A stretch of 64,000 nucleotides of DNA from an uncultured Spirochaetota bacterium (GCA_963745235.1 CAVUXE010000091.1:1-64000), one strand, 5' to 3'; shown: positions 4,173-11,767, numbered from the stretch's first letter. Made by a program: numbers and translations. Notes: generated by a model from the letters alone, not told the origin.

Positions 4173-5789
4173 ATGAAAAAAGGAGTCTTCACGCTCCTCA
4201 CTCTGTTTGCCGCGACCCTCGCATTCGGCCTCCAGGTGGACAAGGATGAGCTCAACAAGGGCCAGGGCACCAACATCGTTTTCGTCAACTACGTGGGCCC
4301 GCACACCACCATTGATACCCTGGAGCAGATCCTGGGGATTGGCCAATCCCTGGGCCGGGGCCTGGGAGACAAGCCTGCCGAGCTTTCGTACAACGGCAAG
4401 TACCGGCTGATTCACGCCGTGGGGGCTCCCGAGGGCCAGAAGCTGGACGCTGACATCTTCATCATCGAAGCAGGCGCGGAGGTGGATGACGTCCTGAACA
4501 TCATGCGCATGGTGAGCGGATACCTGCAGGCCGCATATGCCTATTCGCCGGCGGACGCAATGGTGCTTGCGCGGTTCGTCGTGTACTACAACGCCGTCTT
4601 CCGAGGAGACATGAAATATTTCGGGGGGGTCTACAAGACCATCGTCATGAACAACGTCTCGGCGGACAACGCTGGAATCGCCACAACGTACTCGGATTGG
4701 CCGGGAAAGACCCGGATGCTGATTCCCCTCCTGGGCACCGAAAAGGGAAATCTCAACGCCGTGGGCGCGGGGCAGCTCACCAGCCCCCGGGTCGTTCAGA
4801 ACCTCCAGCAGCAGCCGGGCAAGGCGCTTCCCGAGCGCAAGCAGATCACGGAGCTCCAGCAAAGGGGTGTGGAGCAGGGACAGCAGAAGCTGGAGCAGCA
4901 GCAGGCCCAGCTGGAGCAGCAGAAGAAGGAGCTGGGCACACAGCAGCAGCAGCTTGAGAAGTCGAAGCAGGAGGCAGCGCAGGCGCAGGCCGCGGCGGCC
5001 GCCCCGGGAGCCACGGAGCAGCAGAAGCAGGCTGCCGCCCAGCAGCAGGCCCAGGTCCAGCAGCAGGAGCAGGCGGTTCAGTCCCAGCAGCAGAAAGTGC
5101 AGCAGCAGGAGCAGGCGGTCTCGCAGCAACAGCAGCAGCAGGCTGCGAGCCAGCAGTCCGTCCAGCAACAGAGGGCCGGCATTGCGGCGGACCAGCAGGC
5201 GCTCATCCAGCAGAAGCAGCAGCAGGCTGCCGCCCCTGCGCAGCCCGCGGCGCAAGCGGCGCCTCCGGCCTCGGTGCAGGCGCCGGGCCAGGTCTTGTTT
5301 GTCTATGACCTGGGGGAAGCTCCGGATCACCTGGGAAAGCTCGTCCTGATTGACAGGGTTTCCGGAAAGCTTCTTGCACAGTCAGACCTGAACTCCGTGC
5401 GGGGAAGGACCTACGTGACCGTTGGAAAGGTGATCGTGGTTGCCGCGGGCCGAACGGACCGCAACGGGGCAGTGAAGCTGGTGGCGGTGGACCCTGCAAG
5501 CCTGGCGGTGCAGCAGCAGGGCAAAGACAACCTTGTGCCTGCCAGCTACCTTGCGGCCGCGGAGGGCTCCGTCTACGCGGTTCTCGATTCCGGACACGGG
5601 GCCTTCCTGGGCAGATTCGACCAGGCACTCGCCCTGCAGGCGCAGTCGGAGCGCGCGGTCGACCCATATACCTACATTACGGTCTCAGGGACGGAGGTGT
5701 TCGTCCAGGATGATCAAGGCAACATCCTGATCCTGAACAAGGACGACTTGAAGGAGAAAAAGAGAGCGGCGGGCCAGCCGCCGACATGA
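4173..5789 (+). CDS. P83/100-family spirochaete protein with Gln-rich coiled-coil linker
   Basis: Signal peptide; VDKDEL..IVFVNYVGPH..IDT..QI.GIG and YYNAVFRGD..WPGKT motifs resemble the Borrelia/Treponema P83/100 N-terminal domain. Confidence 0.8.
   Translation: MKKGVFTLLTLFAATLAFGLQVDKDELNKGQGTNIVFVNYVGPHTTIDTLEQILGIGQSLGRGLGDKPAELSYNGKYRLIHAVGAPEGQKLDADIFIIEAGAEVDDVLNIMRMVSGYLQAAYAYSPADAMVLARFVVYYNAVFRGDMKYFGGVYKTIVMNNVSADNAGIATTYSDWPGKTRMLIPLLGTEKGNLNAVGAGQLTSPRVVQNLQQQPGKALPERKQITELQQRGVEQGQQKLEQQQAQLEQQKKELGTQQQQLEKSKQEAAQAQAAAAAPGATEQQKQAAAQQQAQVQQQEQAVQSQQQKVQQQEQAVSQQQQQQAASQQSVQQQRAGIAADQQALIQQKQQQAAAPAQPAAQAAPPASVQAPGQVLFVYDLGEAPDHLGKLVLIDRVSGKLLAQSDLNSVRGRTYVTVGKVIVVAAGRTDRNGAVKLVAVDPASLAVQQQGKDNLVPASYLAAAEGSVYAVLDSGHGAFLGRFDQALALQAQSERAVDPYTYITVSGTEVFVQDDQGNILILNKDDLKEKKRAAGQPPT
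4850..5230 (+). repeat. CAG-rich low-complexity tract encoding poly-Gln coiled coil
   Basis: Repeated cagcagcag/gagcagcag runs in frame with ORF 4173..5789. Confidence 0.85.
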
Positions 5790-7380: not shown

Positions 7381-7812
7381 CTACTTCTTCAGCCTGGCGC
7401 TCAAAGTCATTTTTACGCTGGCAAGCGCCTTGGAGACCGGGCAGCCCGCCTTCGTCTCTTCCGCGAGCTTCTGGAATGTCGCATCATCTATCCCGTCAAC
7501 GGATGCCTCGGTTGAGATCTCTATTCCCGTGATTGCGAAACCGTCCCCCTGCTTCTCGATGCGGACCGAGTTCTCCGTCCGGACGGAGTTCACCTTGTAG
7601 CCTTTTCCTGAAAGCCCCCCGGAAAGCGCCATGGAATAGCAGGCGGCGTGCGCGGCCGCGAGCAATTCCTCTGGGTTTGTCCCCTTGCCCGACTCGAAGC
7701 GGGATGCGAAGCTGTAGGGCAACCCCTTCAGGGCGCCGGACTCCGTGCCGAGCGTCCCGCTTCCCTTCATCAGATCCCCGCGCCATTCTCCCTGACCCTT
7801 GCGAACCGGCAT
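7381..7812 (-). CDS. osmC: OsmC-family peroxiredoxin
   Basis: YSFASRFE..GTNPEELLAAAHAACYSMAL and CPVSKAL; ATG 7812 preceded by GGAG. Confidence 0.92.
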   Translation of the reverse strand: MPVRKGQGEWRGDLMKGSGTLGTESGALKGLPYSFASRFESGKGTNPEELLAAAHAACYSMALSGGLSGKGYKVNSVRTENSVRIEKQGDGFAITGIEISTEASVDGIDDATFQKLAEETKAGCPVSKALASVKMTLSARLKK

Positions 7813-7870
7813 GATATTCTCTCCTTTCCCTTCCAAAGATAGCTCTTTGGCGGGCACCGGGAAAGAATGC

Positions 7871-8917
7871 TCACCCGCGGAGGTCAGGGTTCAGAGAGTC
7901 CTTCAGCTTCTGCATGAGCTCGTCTTCGCTCATCTCGTGTTTGTTGATGAACTGCACGGTCCCGATCTGCAGCTTCATCCCCTCGGACAGCTCGACGGGC
8001 TGGAGGTTGACCACCATGATGGCCTTGTTCTCGCTGGAGGCGAGGTTGATCTCGTTCCTCACGTTGCGGGACTCCATGGCCTGCGGGCTCAGGAACACCA
8101 CGAAGAGCTGGCAGCCGGTCAGCGCCCTGCCGACCTCTTCCGGCCACTCGTTGCCGGGCTCTATCCCTTCGTCGTACCAGACCCGATAGCGGGAGTCAGC
8201 CAGCTTCTTGATGACGCCGAAAACCTCGCGCATGTTCTTGTGGGAGTAGCTGGCAAAGAGATACGGCTTTGAGCCGCTGTATGCCTCGATGGGAGGCTTG
8301 ACGGCCGGCGCCAGGCGCGATGCGAGGCGGCGAAGCGAGAAGCCGCGCCGGGAGACGGCGGCGGAGGGCGCCTTGGGAAACCGTGGGGCCGCGGGTGCAG
8401 CGGCCTTGCGCTTCTTTCGAGCGGGAGCCTTCCGTCGAACGGGCGCCCTGCGCCGGGCGGGCCCCTTGCGGCGAACGGCGGTCTTCCGGCGGGCGGGCGC
8501 TTTGCGGCGGCCCGCGCTCTTGCGTCGGGCAGTGGTCTTGCGGCGAGCCACGGGGCGGCGACGTGCGGTTGCCTTTCGCCGGGTAGCCTTCCTTGCCTTT
8601 CGCCGCGCCGGCTTCCTTGCCCTTCGTTTTGCGGGCTTCCGTGCTCTTCCTCTGGCGGGCTTCTTCGCTTTTCGCCGCGCGGGCTTCTTCGCGCCCCGGC
8701 GGGCCGGTCGCTTCGCCGCGCGCCTGGCGGTCTTCCGGGGGCGCCGCGTCTTGCTTCGCTTCACCGCCCGCCGGGCGGTCTTCCGTGCCGGTCGCGCGCG
8801 CTTTCGCCGCGCTTTTGTCCGCTTTGCCGCGGAAGCCCGCTTCGTCGTGCCCCTGCCGGTCCCCTTGCGCCGGGAGGCAGTCTTCTTTTTCTTCTGTTTC
8901 TTCCGTGTGGTCGCCAT
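7871..8917 (-). CDS. TIR-domain protein with N-terminal Lys/Arg-rich histone-H1-like tail
   Basis: C-terminal ~140 aa PYLFASYSH..VWYDEGIEPG.EW..FLSP..S.NVRNEI is a bacterial TIR with the putative catalytic Glu; the first ~207 aa are K/R/A/P/T repeats with no acidic residue. Confidence 0.88.
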   Translation of the reverse strand: MATTRKKQKKKKTASRRKGTGRGTTKRASAAKRTKARRKRARPARKTARRAVKRSKTRRPRKTARRAAKRPARRGAKKPARRKAKKPARGRARKPAKRRARKPARRKARKATRRKATARRRPVARRKTTARRKSAGRRKAPARRKTAVRRKGPARRRAPVRRKAPARKKRKAAAPAAPRFPKAPSAAVSRRGFSLRRLASRLAPAVKPPIEAYSGSKPYLFASYSHKNMREVFGVIKKLADSRYRVWYDEGIEPGNEWPEEVGRALTGCQLFVVFLSPQAMESRNVRNEINLASSENKAIMVVNLQPVELSEGMKLQIGTVQFINKHEMSEDELMQKLKDSLNPDLRG

Positions 8918-8921
8918 TTCC

Positions 8922-10856
8922 CTACCCTACTTCCGTCCTGCGTTTGATGTGGTAGATGGGGTAGCTCCCGAAGCTCTTCGGCAGCACGATGACCCCGACA
9001 TAGCGGCAGTCCAGCCGGTTCCTTGGATCAGTGAGAAGAAGCGCGGCAAAAGATTCACTGGCGTAGACGTTCCCCGGGCTTGTGATGGGCTCGATGCGCG
9101 CGGCCTGGTTCACGTGAAAGCCGAAGACGTTCAGCCGGTTCAGGAGCGGCTCCTGGACGCAGTACACGGGCCCCGCGTGGAGCCCGATCCTGACGCTCAG
9201 GGACCCGGGCAGGTTGAGACGGGCCCAGTCGGTCTTGCGCACCATGTCCCGCAGGGAAATTGCGCACTCGGCCGCCATCAGGGGATCATCGAACGCCAGG
9301 CAGATGGCGTCCCCCCACGTGTTCTTGTACAGGGGTTCCGCGCCAGAGGCTCGAAGCGTCCGCGATACGCCGGTGAGGAATCCCTTGACGTACGCGGGAA
9401 CCTGCTCCTCCGACAGCTTGCTGTATCCCACCATGTCGGCAAAGAGGATGGCCACCGTCTGGCGGCCTTTCCCGGACCCCTCGTGGTGAGGAACGGCCCC
9501 CGAGGAATCCCGTGCCTTTCCGCCACGTGATTGCACCCTGGCGGTCAGCGGATTGATGACGACATACGGGAAGCCGGTCTGCTGCCACAACGTGACGCAC
9601 TCCGATGTCCCGCCCGGCTTCCCGTTGTGCTTTCCGTCCCACACCGCAACCAGGAGCGTCTCGGTCTCCAGGAAACGACTGCGGAGGATGGCCTTGCCCA
9701 TGATGAGCTGGTTTGCGTAGGAGAACAGGATCTCGTTGCCGCTGCGATATCCCCCCCGGGTGGCTTGCTCGACCATCGAGCCTTTTGCAAGGACAGCCCG
9801 CGCGCGTTTCTTCCACGCGGCTCCGGCGAAGCTCACGCTGGTCTCGAAGAAGTCCTCCTTGTCGAAAGGAAGCACAACGTTGCTTTCTCCCCCGCGGGCA
9901 AGGAGGCATTCGTGAAACAGGATGTCGGCTCCGCAGGCAGCGGAGGCGTAGCCGATGCTCGCGTTCAGCTTCGAAAGAAGCGACGCAATCCGCTGCTTCA
10001 CAAGACCGGCTGAGGACTGCGGAAAATGGGGGTTCCCCTGGTCCGGGGCGTCGATCATATGGCCGGTGAAGGCGATAACCGGGGGGACCCGCAAGGTCTC
10101 CAGCACGCTCGGGTCGACCGGGGTATAGCGCGCCAGGAGCGAAAGCTGCCGCCGGGTGCTTGCCAGGTTGGAATAGTTTCGAACGCTTCTTGCCCGGGCG
10201 AGCCGGTAGAACTTTGCCGCCCGTTCCTGGCGCCCCAGGAGGACGAACGCCTCCGCCACCGTTGCCATGATCCAGTAGCCGCGCTGGGAAGGGTCTTTCA
10301 GGAGATCCGCGCAGATCCGCAGCACCTGCCGGGCAACCCGCCGGGAGAGGTCCTTGTCTCCCATGATCAGGCTCAGGCTTGCCGCGTTGATCCCGGAGTA
10401 GTACCCGCGGCTCCTGCGAAAGGCCCCGAGATACAGCTCGCGGGACTTCGCCAGGTGGGGATGTTCCGGCGCCCCCTCACCCTCTATCAGCCACATCTCC
10501 TTGTAGACCCTGCCCAGGATCCCCAGGGTCTCCTCGTCGTAGTGGCCGTCTTTCATCAGCCGGGTGAGCAGGTCCTTGGCAGTGAGAAGAAAACCGCACT
10601 TGATCAGGGAGAGGCAATAACGCTGCGTGATCAGGAGGTGCCCGGGGAAAACGCGCAGCCCTTCCCTCAGGATGTCGTGCGCAAACATCGACTGCCCCAG
10701 GGTGTCCGCCCTCTCTCCGAGACGGAGAAAATAGTACGGGTCCTTTGTCCAGAGCGCCTCGTCCTTCGAGTCCCACAGGACATGGATGACCTGGCCGAGC
10801 CGGCTCCTGTTGCGTTTCAGGAAACTGTCGAAGCGATCCCTGTTCTGTTCCTTCAT
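8922..10856 (-). CDS. TPR (DUF4071/TRAFs-binding-like) + SLOG-like + class III nucleotidyl cyclase
   Basis: ETLGILGRVYK..YYSGINAA..YWIMAT.AEA helical region; AFTGHMID..SAACGADILF..VVLPF..AVWDG..GGT Rossmannoid; ILFADMVGYS..WGDA..RIGLHAGPV..VNQAARIE cyclase. Confidence 0.85.
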   Translation of the reverse strand: MKEQNRDRFDSFLKRNRSRLGQVIHVLWDSKDEALWTKDPYYFLRLGERADTLGQSMFAHDILREGLRVFPGHLLITQRYCLSLIKCGFLLTAKDLLTRLMKDGHYDEETLGILGRVYKEMWLIEGEGAPEHPHLAKSRELYLGAFRRSRGYYSGINAASLSLIMGDKDLSRRVARQVLRICADLLKDPSQRGYWIMATVAEAFVLLGRQERAAKFYRLARARSVRNYSNLASTRRQLSLLARYTPVDPSVLETLRVPPVIAFTGHMIDAPDQGNPHFPQSSAGLVKQRIASLLSKLNASIGYASAACGADILFHECLLARGGESNVVLPFDKEDFFETSVSFAGAAWKKRARAVLAKGSMVEQATRGGYRSGNEILFSYANQLIMGKAILRSRFLETETLLVAVWDGKHNGKPGGTSECVTLWQQTGFPYVVINPLTARVQSRGGKARDSSGAVPHHEGSGKGRQTVAILFADMVGYSKLSEEQVPAYVKGFLTGVSRTLRASGAEPLYKNTWGDAICLAFDDPLMAAECAISLRDMVRKTDWARLNLPGSLSVRIGLHAGPVYCVQEPLLNRLNVFGFHVNQAARIEPITSPGNVYASESFAALLLTDPRNRLDCRYVGVIVLPKSFGSYPIYHIKRRTEVG

Positions 10857-10918: not shown

Positions 10919-11767
10919 TCAGGTCTTCGGCTCAGGGGAAAAGCTTACCGTGTTCTTTCCCCTCACTTTCGAGGAGTACATCAGGTCGTCCACCTGCTTG
11001 AGAAGCTCATCCACTCCCAGCTTCGGATCGGCGACCGTCAAAGCCCCGATGGACACGGTGACCGGCCAGCCCCGGCGGCCCATTTCGAGGAGCAGGCTTT
11101 CCCGCAGCTTCCCGATTGCCGGCTGTGCGGCTCTCTCATCCGCTTCGGGGAGGAGGAGCGCGAACTCGTCTCCGCCCAGCCGCGCAACGATGTCGGTGCT
11201 GCGCGCATGGCTCCGCATGACGGACACGACGGTCTGGAGGAGAAGGTCGCCCGTGTTGTGACCCTGGGAATCGTTGACCGCCTTGAAATTGTCCAGGTCG
11301 ATATACGCAAGTGTAAACGGCCGTTTGTACCTGCGGGAACGGTCGATCTCGGACCGCAGGATTTCAAGGAAAGATCGCGCGTTGGCCGCGCCCGTGAGAT
11401 GATCGATGCGGGCAAGGGATTTTTCATGCTCGATGGACCTTCGCAGCGCGGAAAAAAGGAGCGCCGTGGTGCTCAGAATGGCCGCGCGAGTTCCCGCGTG
11501 CCAGAAGATGTAGAAGGGGCTCGAGTACTTCTGTCCGGCCAGCAGGTCGGCTGACACCCACACCGCCGCGCTGAGCAGGGCCCCTGCCAGCCCGGGCCAT
11601 CTTCCGGTCGTCCACGCCACAAGGGAGACGGGGACAAGGTACAGGAGGGACAGGGACAGCTCGTAGCCGGTCGCGTAATCAAGGACGCCGATGGCCAGGA
11701 TGAGAGAGTAGCCCACAAGGAGGGCGGTGGATGTTCGCCACTGTGTGAGATCCTTTGGCGGCTTCAT
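10919..11767 (-). CDS. membrane-anchored diguanylate cyclase (GGDEF)
   Basis: About four TM segments, then DLDNFKAVND..GH..GD and RSTD..ARLGGDEF. Confidence 0.92.
   Translation of the reverse strand: MKPPKDLTQWRTSTALLVGYSLILAIGVLDYATGYELSLSLLYLVPVSLVAWTTGRWPGLAGALLSAAVWVSADLLAGQKYSSPFYIFWHAGTRAAILSTTALLFSALRRSIEHEKSLARIDHLTGAANARSFLEILRSEIDRSRRYKRPFTLAYIDLDNFKAVNDSQGHNTGDLLLQTVVSVMRSHARSTDIVARLGGDEFALLLPEADERAAQPAIGKLRESLLLEMGRRGWPVTVSIGALTVADPKLGVDELLKQVDDLMYSSKVRGKNTVSFSPEPKT

Follow-up and report, generated by a model that had tools for sequence, protein, structure and literature searches.

A gene pair for a TPR-S/SLOG/class III cyclase protein and a polybasic TIR protein in Spirochaetota: a candidate relay between two nucleotide messengers

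In Thoeris defence, NAD derivatives made by bacterial TIR proteins trigger killing effectors. Type I Thoeris follows a simple logic: a signal maker, then a SLOG sensor, then a fused output domain, as set out in a preprint (bioRxiv 10.64898/2025.12.03.692087). In type VIII Thoeris the effector ThsI responds to cADPR; its TPR-S domain, which was earlier predicted to function in TIR signalling, is the presumed cADPR perceiver (2025 preprint). For the BcTpr-type core, known from the BcTir/BcTpr pair of Bacillus cereus, a preprint reports YspA, patatin and LSDAT as further partners. The family-tree legend of PMC6459960 includes an abbreviation for adenylyl/guanylyl cyclase among the YpsA-family architectures and gene neighbourhoods shown. 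A literature search, whose scope did not extend to Burroughs et al. 2015, Burroughs and Aravind 2020 or supplementary tables, found no paper on a TIR/SLOG/cyclase module.

The window analysed here is a stretch of 64,000 nucleotides from an uncultured Spirochaetota bacterium (GCA_963745235.1, CAVUXE010000091.1:1-64000). ORF listing, Pfam searches and structure prediction identify two genes on its minus strand: one (8922..10856) encodes a 644-aa protein with TPR-S, SLOG and class III cyclase domains, and the other (7871..8917) encodes a 348-aa TIR protein with a polybasic tail. A 4-nt spacer, GGAA (8918..8921, minus strand), separates the cyclase stop codon TAG from the TIR start codon ATG. Two co-directional genes so arranged (TAG-GGAA-ATG) had been described in an earlier sequence-only reading of the window, and both the ORFs and the minus strand across the junction (...GGG TAG GGAA ATG GCG...) agree with this. 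Nothing resembling a terminator is found between them on the minus strand. The genes form a syntenic, single-copy pair surrounded by housekeeping genes, and the operon includes no dedicated cyclic-nucleotide receiver. Two further co-directional genes are given for context only. A GGDEF diguanylate cyclase gene (10919..11767, minus strand; Pfam GGDEF, E 1.4e-36) lies 62 nt upstream of the cyclase gene and is possibly on the same transcript; it is not counted in the module because no loci but the closest four (L001-L004) retain it in that position. An OsmC-like gene (7381..7857, minus strand; Pfam OsmC, E 4e-19) starts 13 nt past the TIR stop codon and is kept only in L002-L004 and L011.

The 644-aa protein is composed of TPR-S, a SLOG-fold middle domain and a class III cyclase, in that order. 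Its full-length AlphaFold2 model has a pLDDT of 94.7 and a pTM of 0.93. It has 434 relatives at E<=1e-3 among 7999 candidates scored, and its family comprises 3479 cluster representatives at E<=1e-3; of the best 150 of these representatives, 106 have the same three domains. The TPR-S helical repeat region spans residues 1 to ~245 (10122..10856, minus strand; Pfam and model) and consists of 14 helices, H6 to H241, in the AlphaFold2 model. TPR-S (PF20308) matches residues 71-161 (E 1.4e-17, 64.5 bits against a cut-off of 27.6), and MAP3K_TRAF_bd matches residues 105-214 (E 1.1e-6). The region had been read simply as TPR-like repeats; repeats are indeed present, but the label is generic and the specific domain is TPR-S. 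Since this domain is presumed to perceive cADPR elsewhere, the cyclase protein has two candidate sensors, TPR-S and SLOG, and not one.

The SLOG-fold domain occupies residues ~258-445 (9522..10085, minus strand; structure model and structural matches). No Pfam or NCBIfam model matches residues 240-455 at E<=0.1, and SLOG membership therefore rests on structure. The model has a mean pLDDT of 94.6 over residues 240-455. When the model is searched against the PDB with Foldseek, YpsA (2nx2) scores best (E 2.7e-7) and DprA chains come next. YpsA is also the best match in an exhaustive VIA-align search (Z 18.6, rmsd 2.3 over 155 aa, identity 19%); other Z scores are 12.8 for DprA, 12.0 for ShosA, 11.1 for LOG, 10.2 for a Moco carrier and 9.6 for TRPM2, and the SLOG domain of ThsA is a distant structural match (Z 6.7 and 6.2). 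Going by entry titles, and in part by general knowledge of the superfamily, we take the top VIA-align matches to be SLOG members. A SLOG call made by eye is thus confirmed at the level of the predicted structure. The likening to the SLOG domain of Thoeris ThsA stands as regards the fold but not the branch; by the model, the domain belongs to the YpsA/DprA branch, rather than being ThsA-like.

The sequence motifs on which the by-eye call relied are located at residues 263 (FTGHMID), 305 (SAACGADI), 327 (VVLPF), 406 (WDG) and 415 (GGT). The conserved SLOG motifs are F-x-G-H-M-I-D, G309-x-D311, E316, R351 and G415-G416. Among 79 family members, G309, E316 and R351 are each kept in 79/79, H266 and D311 in 77/79, and D269 in 76/79. 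LOG proteins are characterised by the motif PGGxGTxxE; E419, at the position of its Glu, is kept in 26/79. The GxD/E motif is the predicted substrate-binding signature of the YpsA clade, according to PMC6459960. Judged from sequence, G309-x-D311 corresponds to this motif, at the predicted nucleotide-binding site. The pocket keeps His266, Asp269, Asp311, Glu316 and Arg351, residues that would befit an enzyme too, and not only a passive sensor. At L018, an actinobacterial locus, a patatin lipase is joined to this SLOG domain, and NERD, HNH and trypsin-like genes lie beside the fusion, which has a sensor-plus-effector layout.

The class III nucleotidyl cyclase domain covers residues ~465-640 (8937..9464, minus strand). 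Pfam Guanylate_cyc matches residues 466-612 (E 5.7e-11, 42.8 bits against a cut-off of 21.9), and the best Foldseek matches are class III cyclases with TMt values of 0.75-0.83 (CyaB, Cya2, Ma1120 and Rv1900c). The domain had been called intact; D474, D516, N583 and R587 are all found when it is aligned, residue by residue, with Rv1264 and with chains of soluble guanylyl cyclase. In line with the class III literature, we take Asp474 and Asp516 to be metal-binding residues, and Asn583 and Arg587 to be transition-state residues. The four are kept in 78/79, 79/79, 51/79 and 79/79 family members respectively. The base-specifying positions are occupied by an unusual pair, Asn512 and Asn576. Asn512 aligns with Lys of Rv1264 and Glu of guanylyl cyclase; Asn576 aligns with Asp of Rv1264 and Cys of guanylyl cyclase. 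Neither canonical pair (Lys/Asp for ATP, Glu/Cys for GTP) is found at 512/576, and with Asn/Asn in its place the base of the cyclic nucleotide is not predictable. Asn is kept at 512 in 71/79 and at 576 in 56/79 family members, and this conserved pair might indicate a second messenger other than cAMP or cGMP. A 1017-aa paralogue from another spirochaete family has a cyclase followed by a cNMP-binding domain and a SpoIIE/PP2C phosphatase.

The TIR domain lies at residues ~216-340 of the downstream protein (7898..8272, minus strand; Pfam TIR_2 and alignment). TIR_2 matches residues 221-332 (E 9.8e-16, 58.8 bits against a cut-off of 28), and ThsB_TIR matches residues 258-306, a stretch of only 49 residues (E 2.4e-5, 25.1 bits against 21.2). 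Glu289 (codon 8051-8053) lines up with a Glu in Cat1 and another in the TIR domain of 7uxr, each of which we take to be catalytic. It is kept in 70/72 TIR ORFs adjoining family members and is invariant in a 32-sequence alignment (A5). The N-terminal tail, residues 1 to ~190 (8348..8917, minus strand), is of low complexity and is encoded by imperfect tandem DNA repeats of 18, 24, 36 and 48 nt. Residues 1-190 are 49% Lys+Arg and 0% Asp+Glu, and no Pfam family matches the tail. The description of a TIR protein with a catalytic-position Glu and a polybasic tail, as first given, is borne out on both counts. The length and sequence of the tail vary; its composition is kept in 25/31 spirochaete TIR ORFs. 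Composition suggests that the tail is histone-H1-like and a putative polyanion binder. TIR proteins of the spirochaete clade have this N-terminal tail and no membrane segment, so a soluble protein of this kind would suit biochemistry. Among TIR partners of at least 250 aa in other lineages, 23/36 have one hydrophobic segment after the TIR domain, and several TIR partners there carry TPR, Sel1 or WD40 repeats, not a basic tail.

The sequence-only reading had made its proposal depend on the two genes being adjacent in other genomes, and they are. In 15/15 related Spirochaetota loci the next gene downstream of the cyclase gene is a TIR orthologue. The cyclase protein is 56-84% identical in these loci, some of which differ in their other neighbours; the TIR domain is 67-94% identical across loci with this range. 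In a phylum-wide sample of 17 more distant loci, 15 have a TIR ORF, one has a fragment only and in one none was found. The module is present in 16/20 other genomes of the genus and 18/24 of the family, related genomes being non-independent samples. Metagenomic loci were taken from the best 80 of at least 557 matches, and are therefore best-scoring loci and not a random draw. Within this set, a TIR ORF is found in 37/79 loci at 33-40% identity, and Pfam TIR_2 is confirmed in 39/40 TIR ORFs; 32/37 lie within 250 nt of the cyclase gene or overlap it, 5/37 lie 0.8-2.3 kb away, and pairs occur in all four orientations. The other 42/79 loci of these best-scoring matches have no TIR gene in the available sequence, and many of the contigs are short. 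Where at least 2.5 kb is available on both sides, 14/25 of the best-scoring loci have a TIR ORF; as 11/25 do not, the cyclase protein may also take other inputs. There is no recurring partner family among 105 other (non-TIR) immediate neighbours, in which the commonest family occurs only 5 times. The 5.85-Mb genome of the window has only 2 TIR_2 matches and 20 cNMP_binding matches. The cyclase/TIR pairing is not chance.

Likely sensors of an NAD-derived signal and a cyclic-nucleotide synthase are thus encoded beside a TIR enzyme, and one small-molecule signal is therefore probably passed on as another. We consider it somewhat probable that the gene pair is a signalling relay which chains two nucleotide messengers, from a TIR product through SLOG/TPR-S to a cyclic nucleotide. 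The TIR protein would be switched on when copies of it are brought together. In the spirochaete clade the trigger would be binding of the histone-H1-like tail to a polyanion, e.g. DNA, RNA or polyphosphate. A repeat sensor located outside the cytoplasm, behind the membrane segment, would take that part in most other lineages. The TIR domain would then cleave NAD+ and release an ADP-ribose-derived signal such as a cADPR isomer, a step suggested by the conserved catalytic-position Glu and by known TIR enzyme activity. Fold, conserved pocket motifs and gene linkage suggest that either the YpsA-like SLOG domain or TPR-S, or the two together, would bind this signal. Binding would activate the C-terminal class III cyclase, whose catalytic residues are intact, and cNMP-binding proteins whose genes lie elsewhere in the genome would read the cyclic nucleotide produced, with an output that would be regulatory, rather than suicidal. 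A relay from TIR to SLOG-like domain to cyclase had been proposed from the sequence, and with conserved adjacency and a SLOG fold it is now the best-supported reading.

If the relay is true, it joins two large second-messenger systems in one pathway and extends the use of TIR signalling beyond mobile defence islands. The conserved TIR partner here is a cyclic-nucleotide synthase belonging to a family of thousands of sequence clusters; the relay would also give a function to this abundant family, which is annotated as 'TRAFs-binding domain' or 'class 3 adenylate cyclase'. A fuller picture can be offered tentatively, and we regard it as possible but doubtful: the NAD-derived TIR signal is converted to a cyclic nucleotide, two messengers in series, for ordinary sensing, with a membrane TIR receptor in other phyla and a polyanion-sensing tail in this spirochaete clade. 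The input in most phyla would be a receptor that crosses the membrane once and has its TIR domain on the inner side, much as Toll-like receptors do. In the spirochaete clade the receptor part is replaced by the histone-H1-like tail, and the TIR protein would therefore report polyanion state, for example free or damaged nucleic acid, or polyphosphate.

The same wiring could instead serve anti-phage abortive infection of the Thoeris kind, in which the TIR protein senses infection and the cyclase is the effector, either draining an NTP pool or producing a cyclic nucleotide as the trigger for a killing effector whose gene lies elsewhere. Types I and VIII of Thoeris both pair a TIR protein with a partner that bears SLOG or TPR-S; the SLOG-patatin fusion in L018 lies beside NERD, HNH and trypsin-like genes; and TIR partners elsewhere have variable repeat domains, as is often the case in immune sensors. 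However, PADLOC gives only weak matches for the window pair (PycC, E 2.6e-4; ThsB1, E 0.013; TIR defence models), and while these can be counted for defence, they also mean that known defence models fit poorly. Only 12 PADLOC families, one member each, are matched among the 105 non-TIR neighbours, and no gene for a toxic effector is linked to the pair. Conservation is higher in the TIR domain than in the cyclase protein, which is not typical of genes in an arms race, and the paralogue ending in a PP2C phosphatase has a regulatory output. A defence role had been suggested from the sequence. The context does not support it: the pair is single-copy, syntenic, widespread in the genus and set amid housekeeping genes. 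We hold abortive infection to be unlikely, and are inclined to see the pair as a pathway for sensing stress or the state of the envelope, fixed and inherited vertically, and not as a mobile anti-phage system.

Other explanations change the role of one protein. The SLOG domain may be an enzyme and not a sensor, processing a nucleotide such as the TIR product or another N-glycosidic substrate; shaping or ending the signal would then be the task of the cyclase protein, with the cyclase itself under other control, e.g. by TPR-S. Relatives of the domain include true enzymes (LOG, Z 11.1), the polar pocket residues (H266, D269, D311, E316, R351) are near-invariant, and SLOG domains range from enzymes to non-catalytic sensors, according to a review by the group that defined the superfamily. 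Yet the two proteins nearest in structure, YpsA and DprA, are binders and not established enzymes, the Glu of the LOG-type motif is not conserved, and fusion to output domains (cyclase, patatin) is the usual layout of a sensor; this explanation is quite unlikely. It is very unlikely that the TIR protein is a protein-protein adaptor which docks on the TPR-S repeats and activates the cyclase by contact, in a stable complex with no diffusible product. An adaptor would not need the near-invariant Glu of the TIR partners, the receiving protein contains a nucleotide-binding SLOG fold, and among the best 80 of at least 557 metagenomic matches the partner gene is found in any orientation and sometimes at a distance. 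TPR repeats are nonetheless typical protein-binding modules, the 4-nt spacing would permit coupled translation and so favour co-assembly, and the B. cereus TIR/TPR pair is reported to work as a complex (preprint). That the genes act independently and their adjacency has no functional meaning is extremely improbable: the lack of a TIR gene in over half of the best-scoring metagenomic loci, as far as sequence is available, fits this, but adjacency is kept down to 33-40% identity in varied orientations, no other neighbour family recurs, and TIR genes are rare in the window's genome.

The signalling relay can be compared with several known systems. Type I Thoeris (ThsB TIR with ThsA SIR2-SLOG) likewise has a TIR gene beside a SLOG-fold protein placed to read the TIR product. 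The output in ThsA is a SIR2 NADase, whereas here it is a class III cyclase; the SIR2 domain, a hallmark of ThsA, is absent from the window's cyclase protein in Pfam searches. The SLOG domain here is YpsA/DprA-like (Z 18.6 and 12.8, against 6.7 for ThsA), there is an additional TPR-S domain, and the pair lies in a housekeeping context that looks vertically inherited. Type VIII Thoeris (a TIR protein with ThsI, a 'CMP hydrolase' plus TPR) likewise combines a TIR protein and a TPR-domain protein, a likeness drawn from the preprint's description of ThsI. The window's protein has TPR-S on its N-terminal side, with SLOG and cyclase domains after it; these are in the place of any CMP-hydrolase, glycosidase or deoxyribosyltransferase-like domain, none of which is found by Pfam.

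Pycsar (a PycC cyclase with a cNMP-activated effector, some with TIR) likewise encodes a class III-type cyclase and a TIR domain together. The PADLOC match of PycC to the cyclase protein is weak (E 2.6e-4, 18.2 bits, residues 552-615). The TIR protein has no cNMP-binding domain (no PF00027 match), so that membership in Pycsar is rejected and a Pycsar-type flow from cyclase to TIR is unlikely. To our knowledge, N-terminal sensor domains such as those of the window's cyclase are not known in Pycsar cyclases. YpsA of Bacillus subtilis, on which the 'YpsA proper' group of SLOG proteins was founded, gives the best structural match and shares the GxD/E motif; it is, however, a stand-alone protein of 178 residues linked to cell division, its identity to the middle domain is 19%, and Pfam models miss the domain here. 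The nearest likeness in both proteins is to pairs of a TIR-membrane-repeat receptor and a TPR-S/SLOG/cyclase protein in other phyla, which have the same three-domain cyclase protein and the same TIR linkage. Their TIR partners have the hydrophobic segment and repeats, whereas those of the spirochaete clade have an N-terminal polybasic tail instead.

Two co-directional genes lie almost end to end on the minus strand of the window. One (8922..10856) encodes a 644-aa protein with TPR-S, SLOG and class III cyclase domains; the other (7871..8917) encodes a 348-aa TIR protein with a polybasic tail. Both ORFs were recovered as the sequence-only reading had placed them, and the junction of cyclase stop and TIR start does read TAG GGAA ATG. 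No terminator-like site was found between the two genes on this strand. A gene for a GGDEF diguanylate cyclase (10919..11767, minus strand) lies upstream of the pair; its product has a hydrophobic N-terminal part and a weak DUF4118 match. Since it shares the strand of the cyclase gene and precedes it by only 62 nt, the transcript of the pair may also encode a third nucleotide-messenger enzyme. Downstream of the pair, Pfam identifies an OsmC-like gene and then a Rieske/FAD oxidoreductase gene, both on the minus strand. The first intergenic minus-strand terminator-like hairpin downstream of the pair is at 5765-5783, just past the oxidoreductase gene, so the genes from GGDEF through Rieske/FAD oxidoreductase may form one transcription unit. 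The GGDEF and OsmC genes were rejected as parts of the module because they are retained in the closest loci only; the upstream GGDEF gene is retained in just the four closest loci (L001-L004). The pair is flanked by aminotransferase and transketolase-like genes on the plus strand (Pfam), and GC content stays even throughout. A Borrelia P83/100-like protein of 538 aa is encoded at 4173-5789 (plus strand; E 9.8e-88); it has a long Gln-rich central stretch and is syntenic in the closest relatives.

In the cyclase protein, Pfam places TPR-S (PF20308) at residues 71-161 (E 1.4e-17), and the related MAP3K_TRAF_bd model also matches. Residues 240-455 have no match in Pfam or NCBIfam. Queried against 1.84 billion representative proteins, they have 3479 relatives at E<=1e-3, of which 1859 reach E<=1e-10. 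BLASTP against the three query parts found all three in 106 of the best 150 of the 3479 relatives; most of the others in this set look like fragments. These best relatives supplied the alignment for an AlphaFold2 model of the middle domain (mean pLDDT 94.6). Against the PDB, Foldseek ranks Bacillus subtilis YpsA first (E 2.7e-7) and DprA next. Exhaustive VIA-align gives YpsA a Z of 18.6 (rmsd 2.3 over 155 residues), followed by DprA (12.8), ShosA (12.0), LOG (11.1), Moco carrier protein (10.2), TRPM2 (9.6) and the ThsA SLOG domain (6.7). The SLOG assignment, originally made by eye, is thus right, and the modelled fold falls on the YpsA/DprA side of its superfamily. A passage of the YpsA paper (PMC6459960) gives GxD/E as a predicted substrate-binding signature; its counterpart here is G309-x-D311, with G309 present in 79/79 family members and D311 in 77/79. 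The whole protein is modelled as a single compact unit (pLDDT 94.7, pTM 0.93). A sequence search of solved structures with the whole protein matched cyclase chains alone; Foldseek with the full-length model likewise returned only cyclases, and is uninformative on the TPR-S part.

The Guanylate_cyc domain covers residues 466-612 (Pfam, E 5.7e-11). Its active-site residues were read from alignments to Rv1264 and guanylyl cyclase chains, together with an alignment of 79 family members. Asp474 (78/79) and Asp516 (79/79) occupy the positions assigned to metal binding in class III cyclases; Arg587 (79/79) and Asn583 (51/79, most others having Thr or Ser) occupy the transition-state positions. All four are present, as expected from the earlier claim of an intact class III cyclase, and judged by these residues the enzyme looks active. 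At the two base-setting positions, normally Lys/Asp or Glu/Cys, the family instead has Asn512 (71/79) and Asn576 (56/79).

The TIR protein has a TIR_2 domain at residues 221-332 (Pfam, E 9.8e-16). Glu289 aligns with the counterpart Glu in both Cat1 and a bacterial TIR structure, which bears out the proposed catalytic-position Glu; it is invariant across a 32-sequence alignment and kept in 70/72 TIR ORFs that adjoin family members. The tail (residues 1-190) is 49% Lys+Arg, contains no acidic residues and matches no Pfam family. Its DNA consists of imperfect tandem repeats of 18, 24, 36 and 48 nt. Basic tails are found in 25/31 spirochaete TIR ORFs; they are 121-343 residues long, with 28-50% Lys+Arg and at most 4% Asp+Glu. 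The tail sequences cannot be aligned among these ORFs; conservation is strong in the TIR domain and in the short linker that precedes it. In two TIR partners from another spirochaete family (L053:7407-8696 and L055:3869-5173) the TIR domain is N-terminal, the basic tail is absent, and the C-terminus is extended by about 300 aa that include a hydrophobic segment. The change to a basic tail therefore took place within the phylum. The genome of the window (5.85 Mb) has two TIR_2 matches; the other one is at G000:C9:5067-5435 (plus strand), within a 407-aa open frame.

The linkage of the two genes is far beyond chance. A scan of a genome collection found a TIR gene directly downstream in 15/15 Spirochaetota loci with 56-84% identity in the cyclase protein, including loci whose remaining neighbours differ. 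The same scan found three non-spirochaete loci, in which tblastn detected no TIR; one of these is a cyclase domain only, and one is SLOG fused to patatin. Across the phylum, the SLOG domain is present in 17 of 401 sampled genomes, mostly in a few families. Of 17 loci taken from these genomes, tblastn finds a TIR in 14; another carries two TIR ORFs on the opposite strand, one shows no more than a 66-residue TIR fragment, and in one none was found. Within its own order the domain occurs in 36/92 genomes, counting that of the window. Excluding the latter, it occurs in 16/20 genomes of the genus and 18/24 of the family; it is found in 15/21 of a sister family and 0/24 of another.

More distant relatives came from a metagenome scan with a 26-sequence alignment, using the best 80 of at least 557 matches, 79 of them at 33-40% identity. 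An iterated TIR profile matched ORFs of at least 90 aa in 37 of these 79 loci, 40 ORFs in all, and Pfam confirmed TIR_2 in 39/40. Where at least 2.5 kb of flank was available on both sides, 14/25 loci in this set have a TIR ORF. The ORF overlaps the cyclase gene or lies within 250 nt of it in 32 of the 37, and all four relative orientations are seen. The 105 other immediate neighbours in the same best-80 set show no comparable recurrence: the commonest family has n=5, and only 12 PADLOC families appear, with one member each. Linkage is thus TIR-specific and old enough to outlast rearrangement, and the adjacency proposed from one genome holds both in close loci and at 33-40% identity.

Outside the clade, the usual TIR partner begins with the TIR domain and continues in a long extension with TPR, Sel1 or WD40 repeats, or DUF4062. 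A crude hydropathy scan found one hydrophobic segment directly after the TIR in 23/36 partners of at least 250 aa; judged from sequence, this layout is receptor-like. The polybasic tail is accordingly a clade-specific substitute for the presumed input part, with TIR and cyclase protein unchanged. A 1017-aa paralogue from another spirochaete family (L050:5407-8460, plus strand) combines TPR-S, a SLOG-homologous middle region (tied to SLOG by its match in the phylum-sample search), cyclase, a cNMP-binding domain and a SpoIIE/PP2C phosphatase. Just upstream is the 66-residue TIR fragment; the related locus L051 has an intact 253-aa basic-tailed TIR gene upstream. The fusion points to an ordinary cNMP-binding domain as the reader of the cyclase product, driving a regulatory phosphatase. 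The genome of the window has 20 cNMP_binding matches, all potential signal receivers. Other proteins have an N-terminal RyR (ryanodine-receptor) domain ahead of TPR-S/SLOG (P0172, P0240) or an AAA_16 ATPase added to TPR-S, SLOG and cyclase (P0272-P0274, 1212-1231 aa). A search for longer fused forms returned only three proteins, all with AAA_16, which is weak evidence either way. P0165 (555 aa) joins SLOG and cyclase to a TIR piece within a single frame, but a garbled stretch links the parts; it is more likely a frameshift-joined adjacent pair, and was accepted as adjacency only.

The most economical reading is a four-step relay. The TIR protein would become active when its copies cluster, in this clade by binding of the tail to a polyanion, and would turn NAD+ into an ADPR-type signal. 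That signal would be bound in the neighbouring protein by SLOG, TPR-S or both, and the cyclase domain would then make a cyclic nucleotide to be read by receivers whose genes lie elsewhere. Directly observed are the identities of the domains, the preserved catalytic residues, the linkage of the genes and the cNMP receiver fused in a paralogue; each biochemical step and the part played by the tail are inferred. We infer a flow from TIR to cyclase from two features of the TIR partner, its lack of a cNMP-binding domain and its variable input part. TPR-S is a second candidate sensor beside SLOG: in type VIII Thoeris, as reported in a 2025 preprint on TIR systems (bioRxiv 10.64898/2025.12.03.692087), the effector ThsI combines a CMP-hydrolase with TPR and responds to canonical cADPR, which its TPR domain is presumed to perceive. 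A 2023 preprint has a related TIR/TPR pair working as a complex, which keeps alive a model of direct contact between the two proteins in place of a diffusible product. A complex prediction for residues 1-455 of the cyclase protein with TIR residues 203-348, using separate alignments, scored 0.01 against a mark of 0.32, which speaks neither for nor against contact.

The relay logic of the sequence-only reading thus stands as the best interpretation; its nucleic-acid trigger and its defence label are unproven, and the latter fits less well with a housekeeping gene context and weak defence-model scores. A defence system would explain the Thoeris-like layout, the variable input domains of TIR partners, and an actinobacterial relative (L018:5980-6888, plus strand) in which SLOG (34% identity) and a patatin-like phospholipase form one protein. 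The neighbours of that gene encode NERD, HNH and trypsin-like domains, and its context looks more defence-island-like. However, PADLOC returned only weak matches to the known defence models. The pair is also single-copy and common in the genus, identity across loci is 67-94% for its TIR domain against 56-84% for the cyclase protein, and the fused output of the paralogue is regulatory. A regulatory role is therefore ahead of a defensive one, but not by much.

In the literature searched, no description of a conserved pair of TIR and TPR-S/SLOG/cyclase was found, nor the idea of a cyclic-nucleotide output of TIR signalling; an earlier mention of the pair is possible. A figure legend of the YpsA paper (PMC6459960, 2019) includes cyclase among the YpsA-family architectures and neighbourhoods depicted, and the main text of bioRxiv 10.64898/2025.12.03.692087 uses 'cyclase' in other senses only. 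All four kinds of domain are already known, as is signalling from TIR to SLOG.
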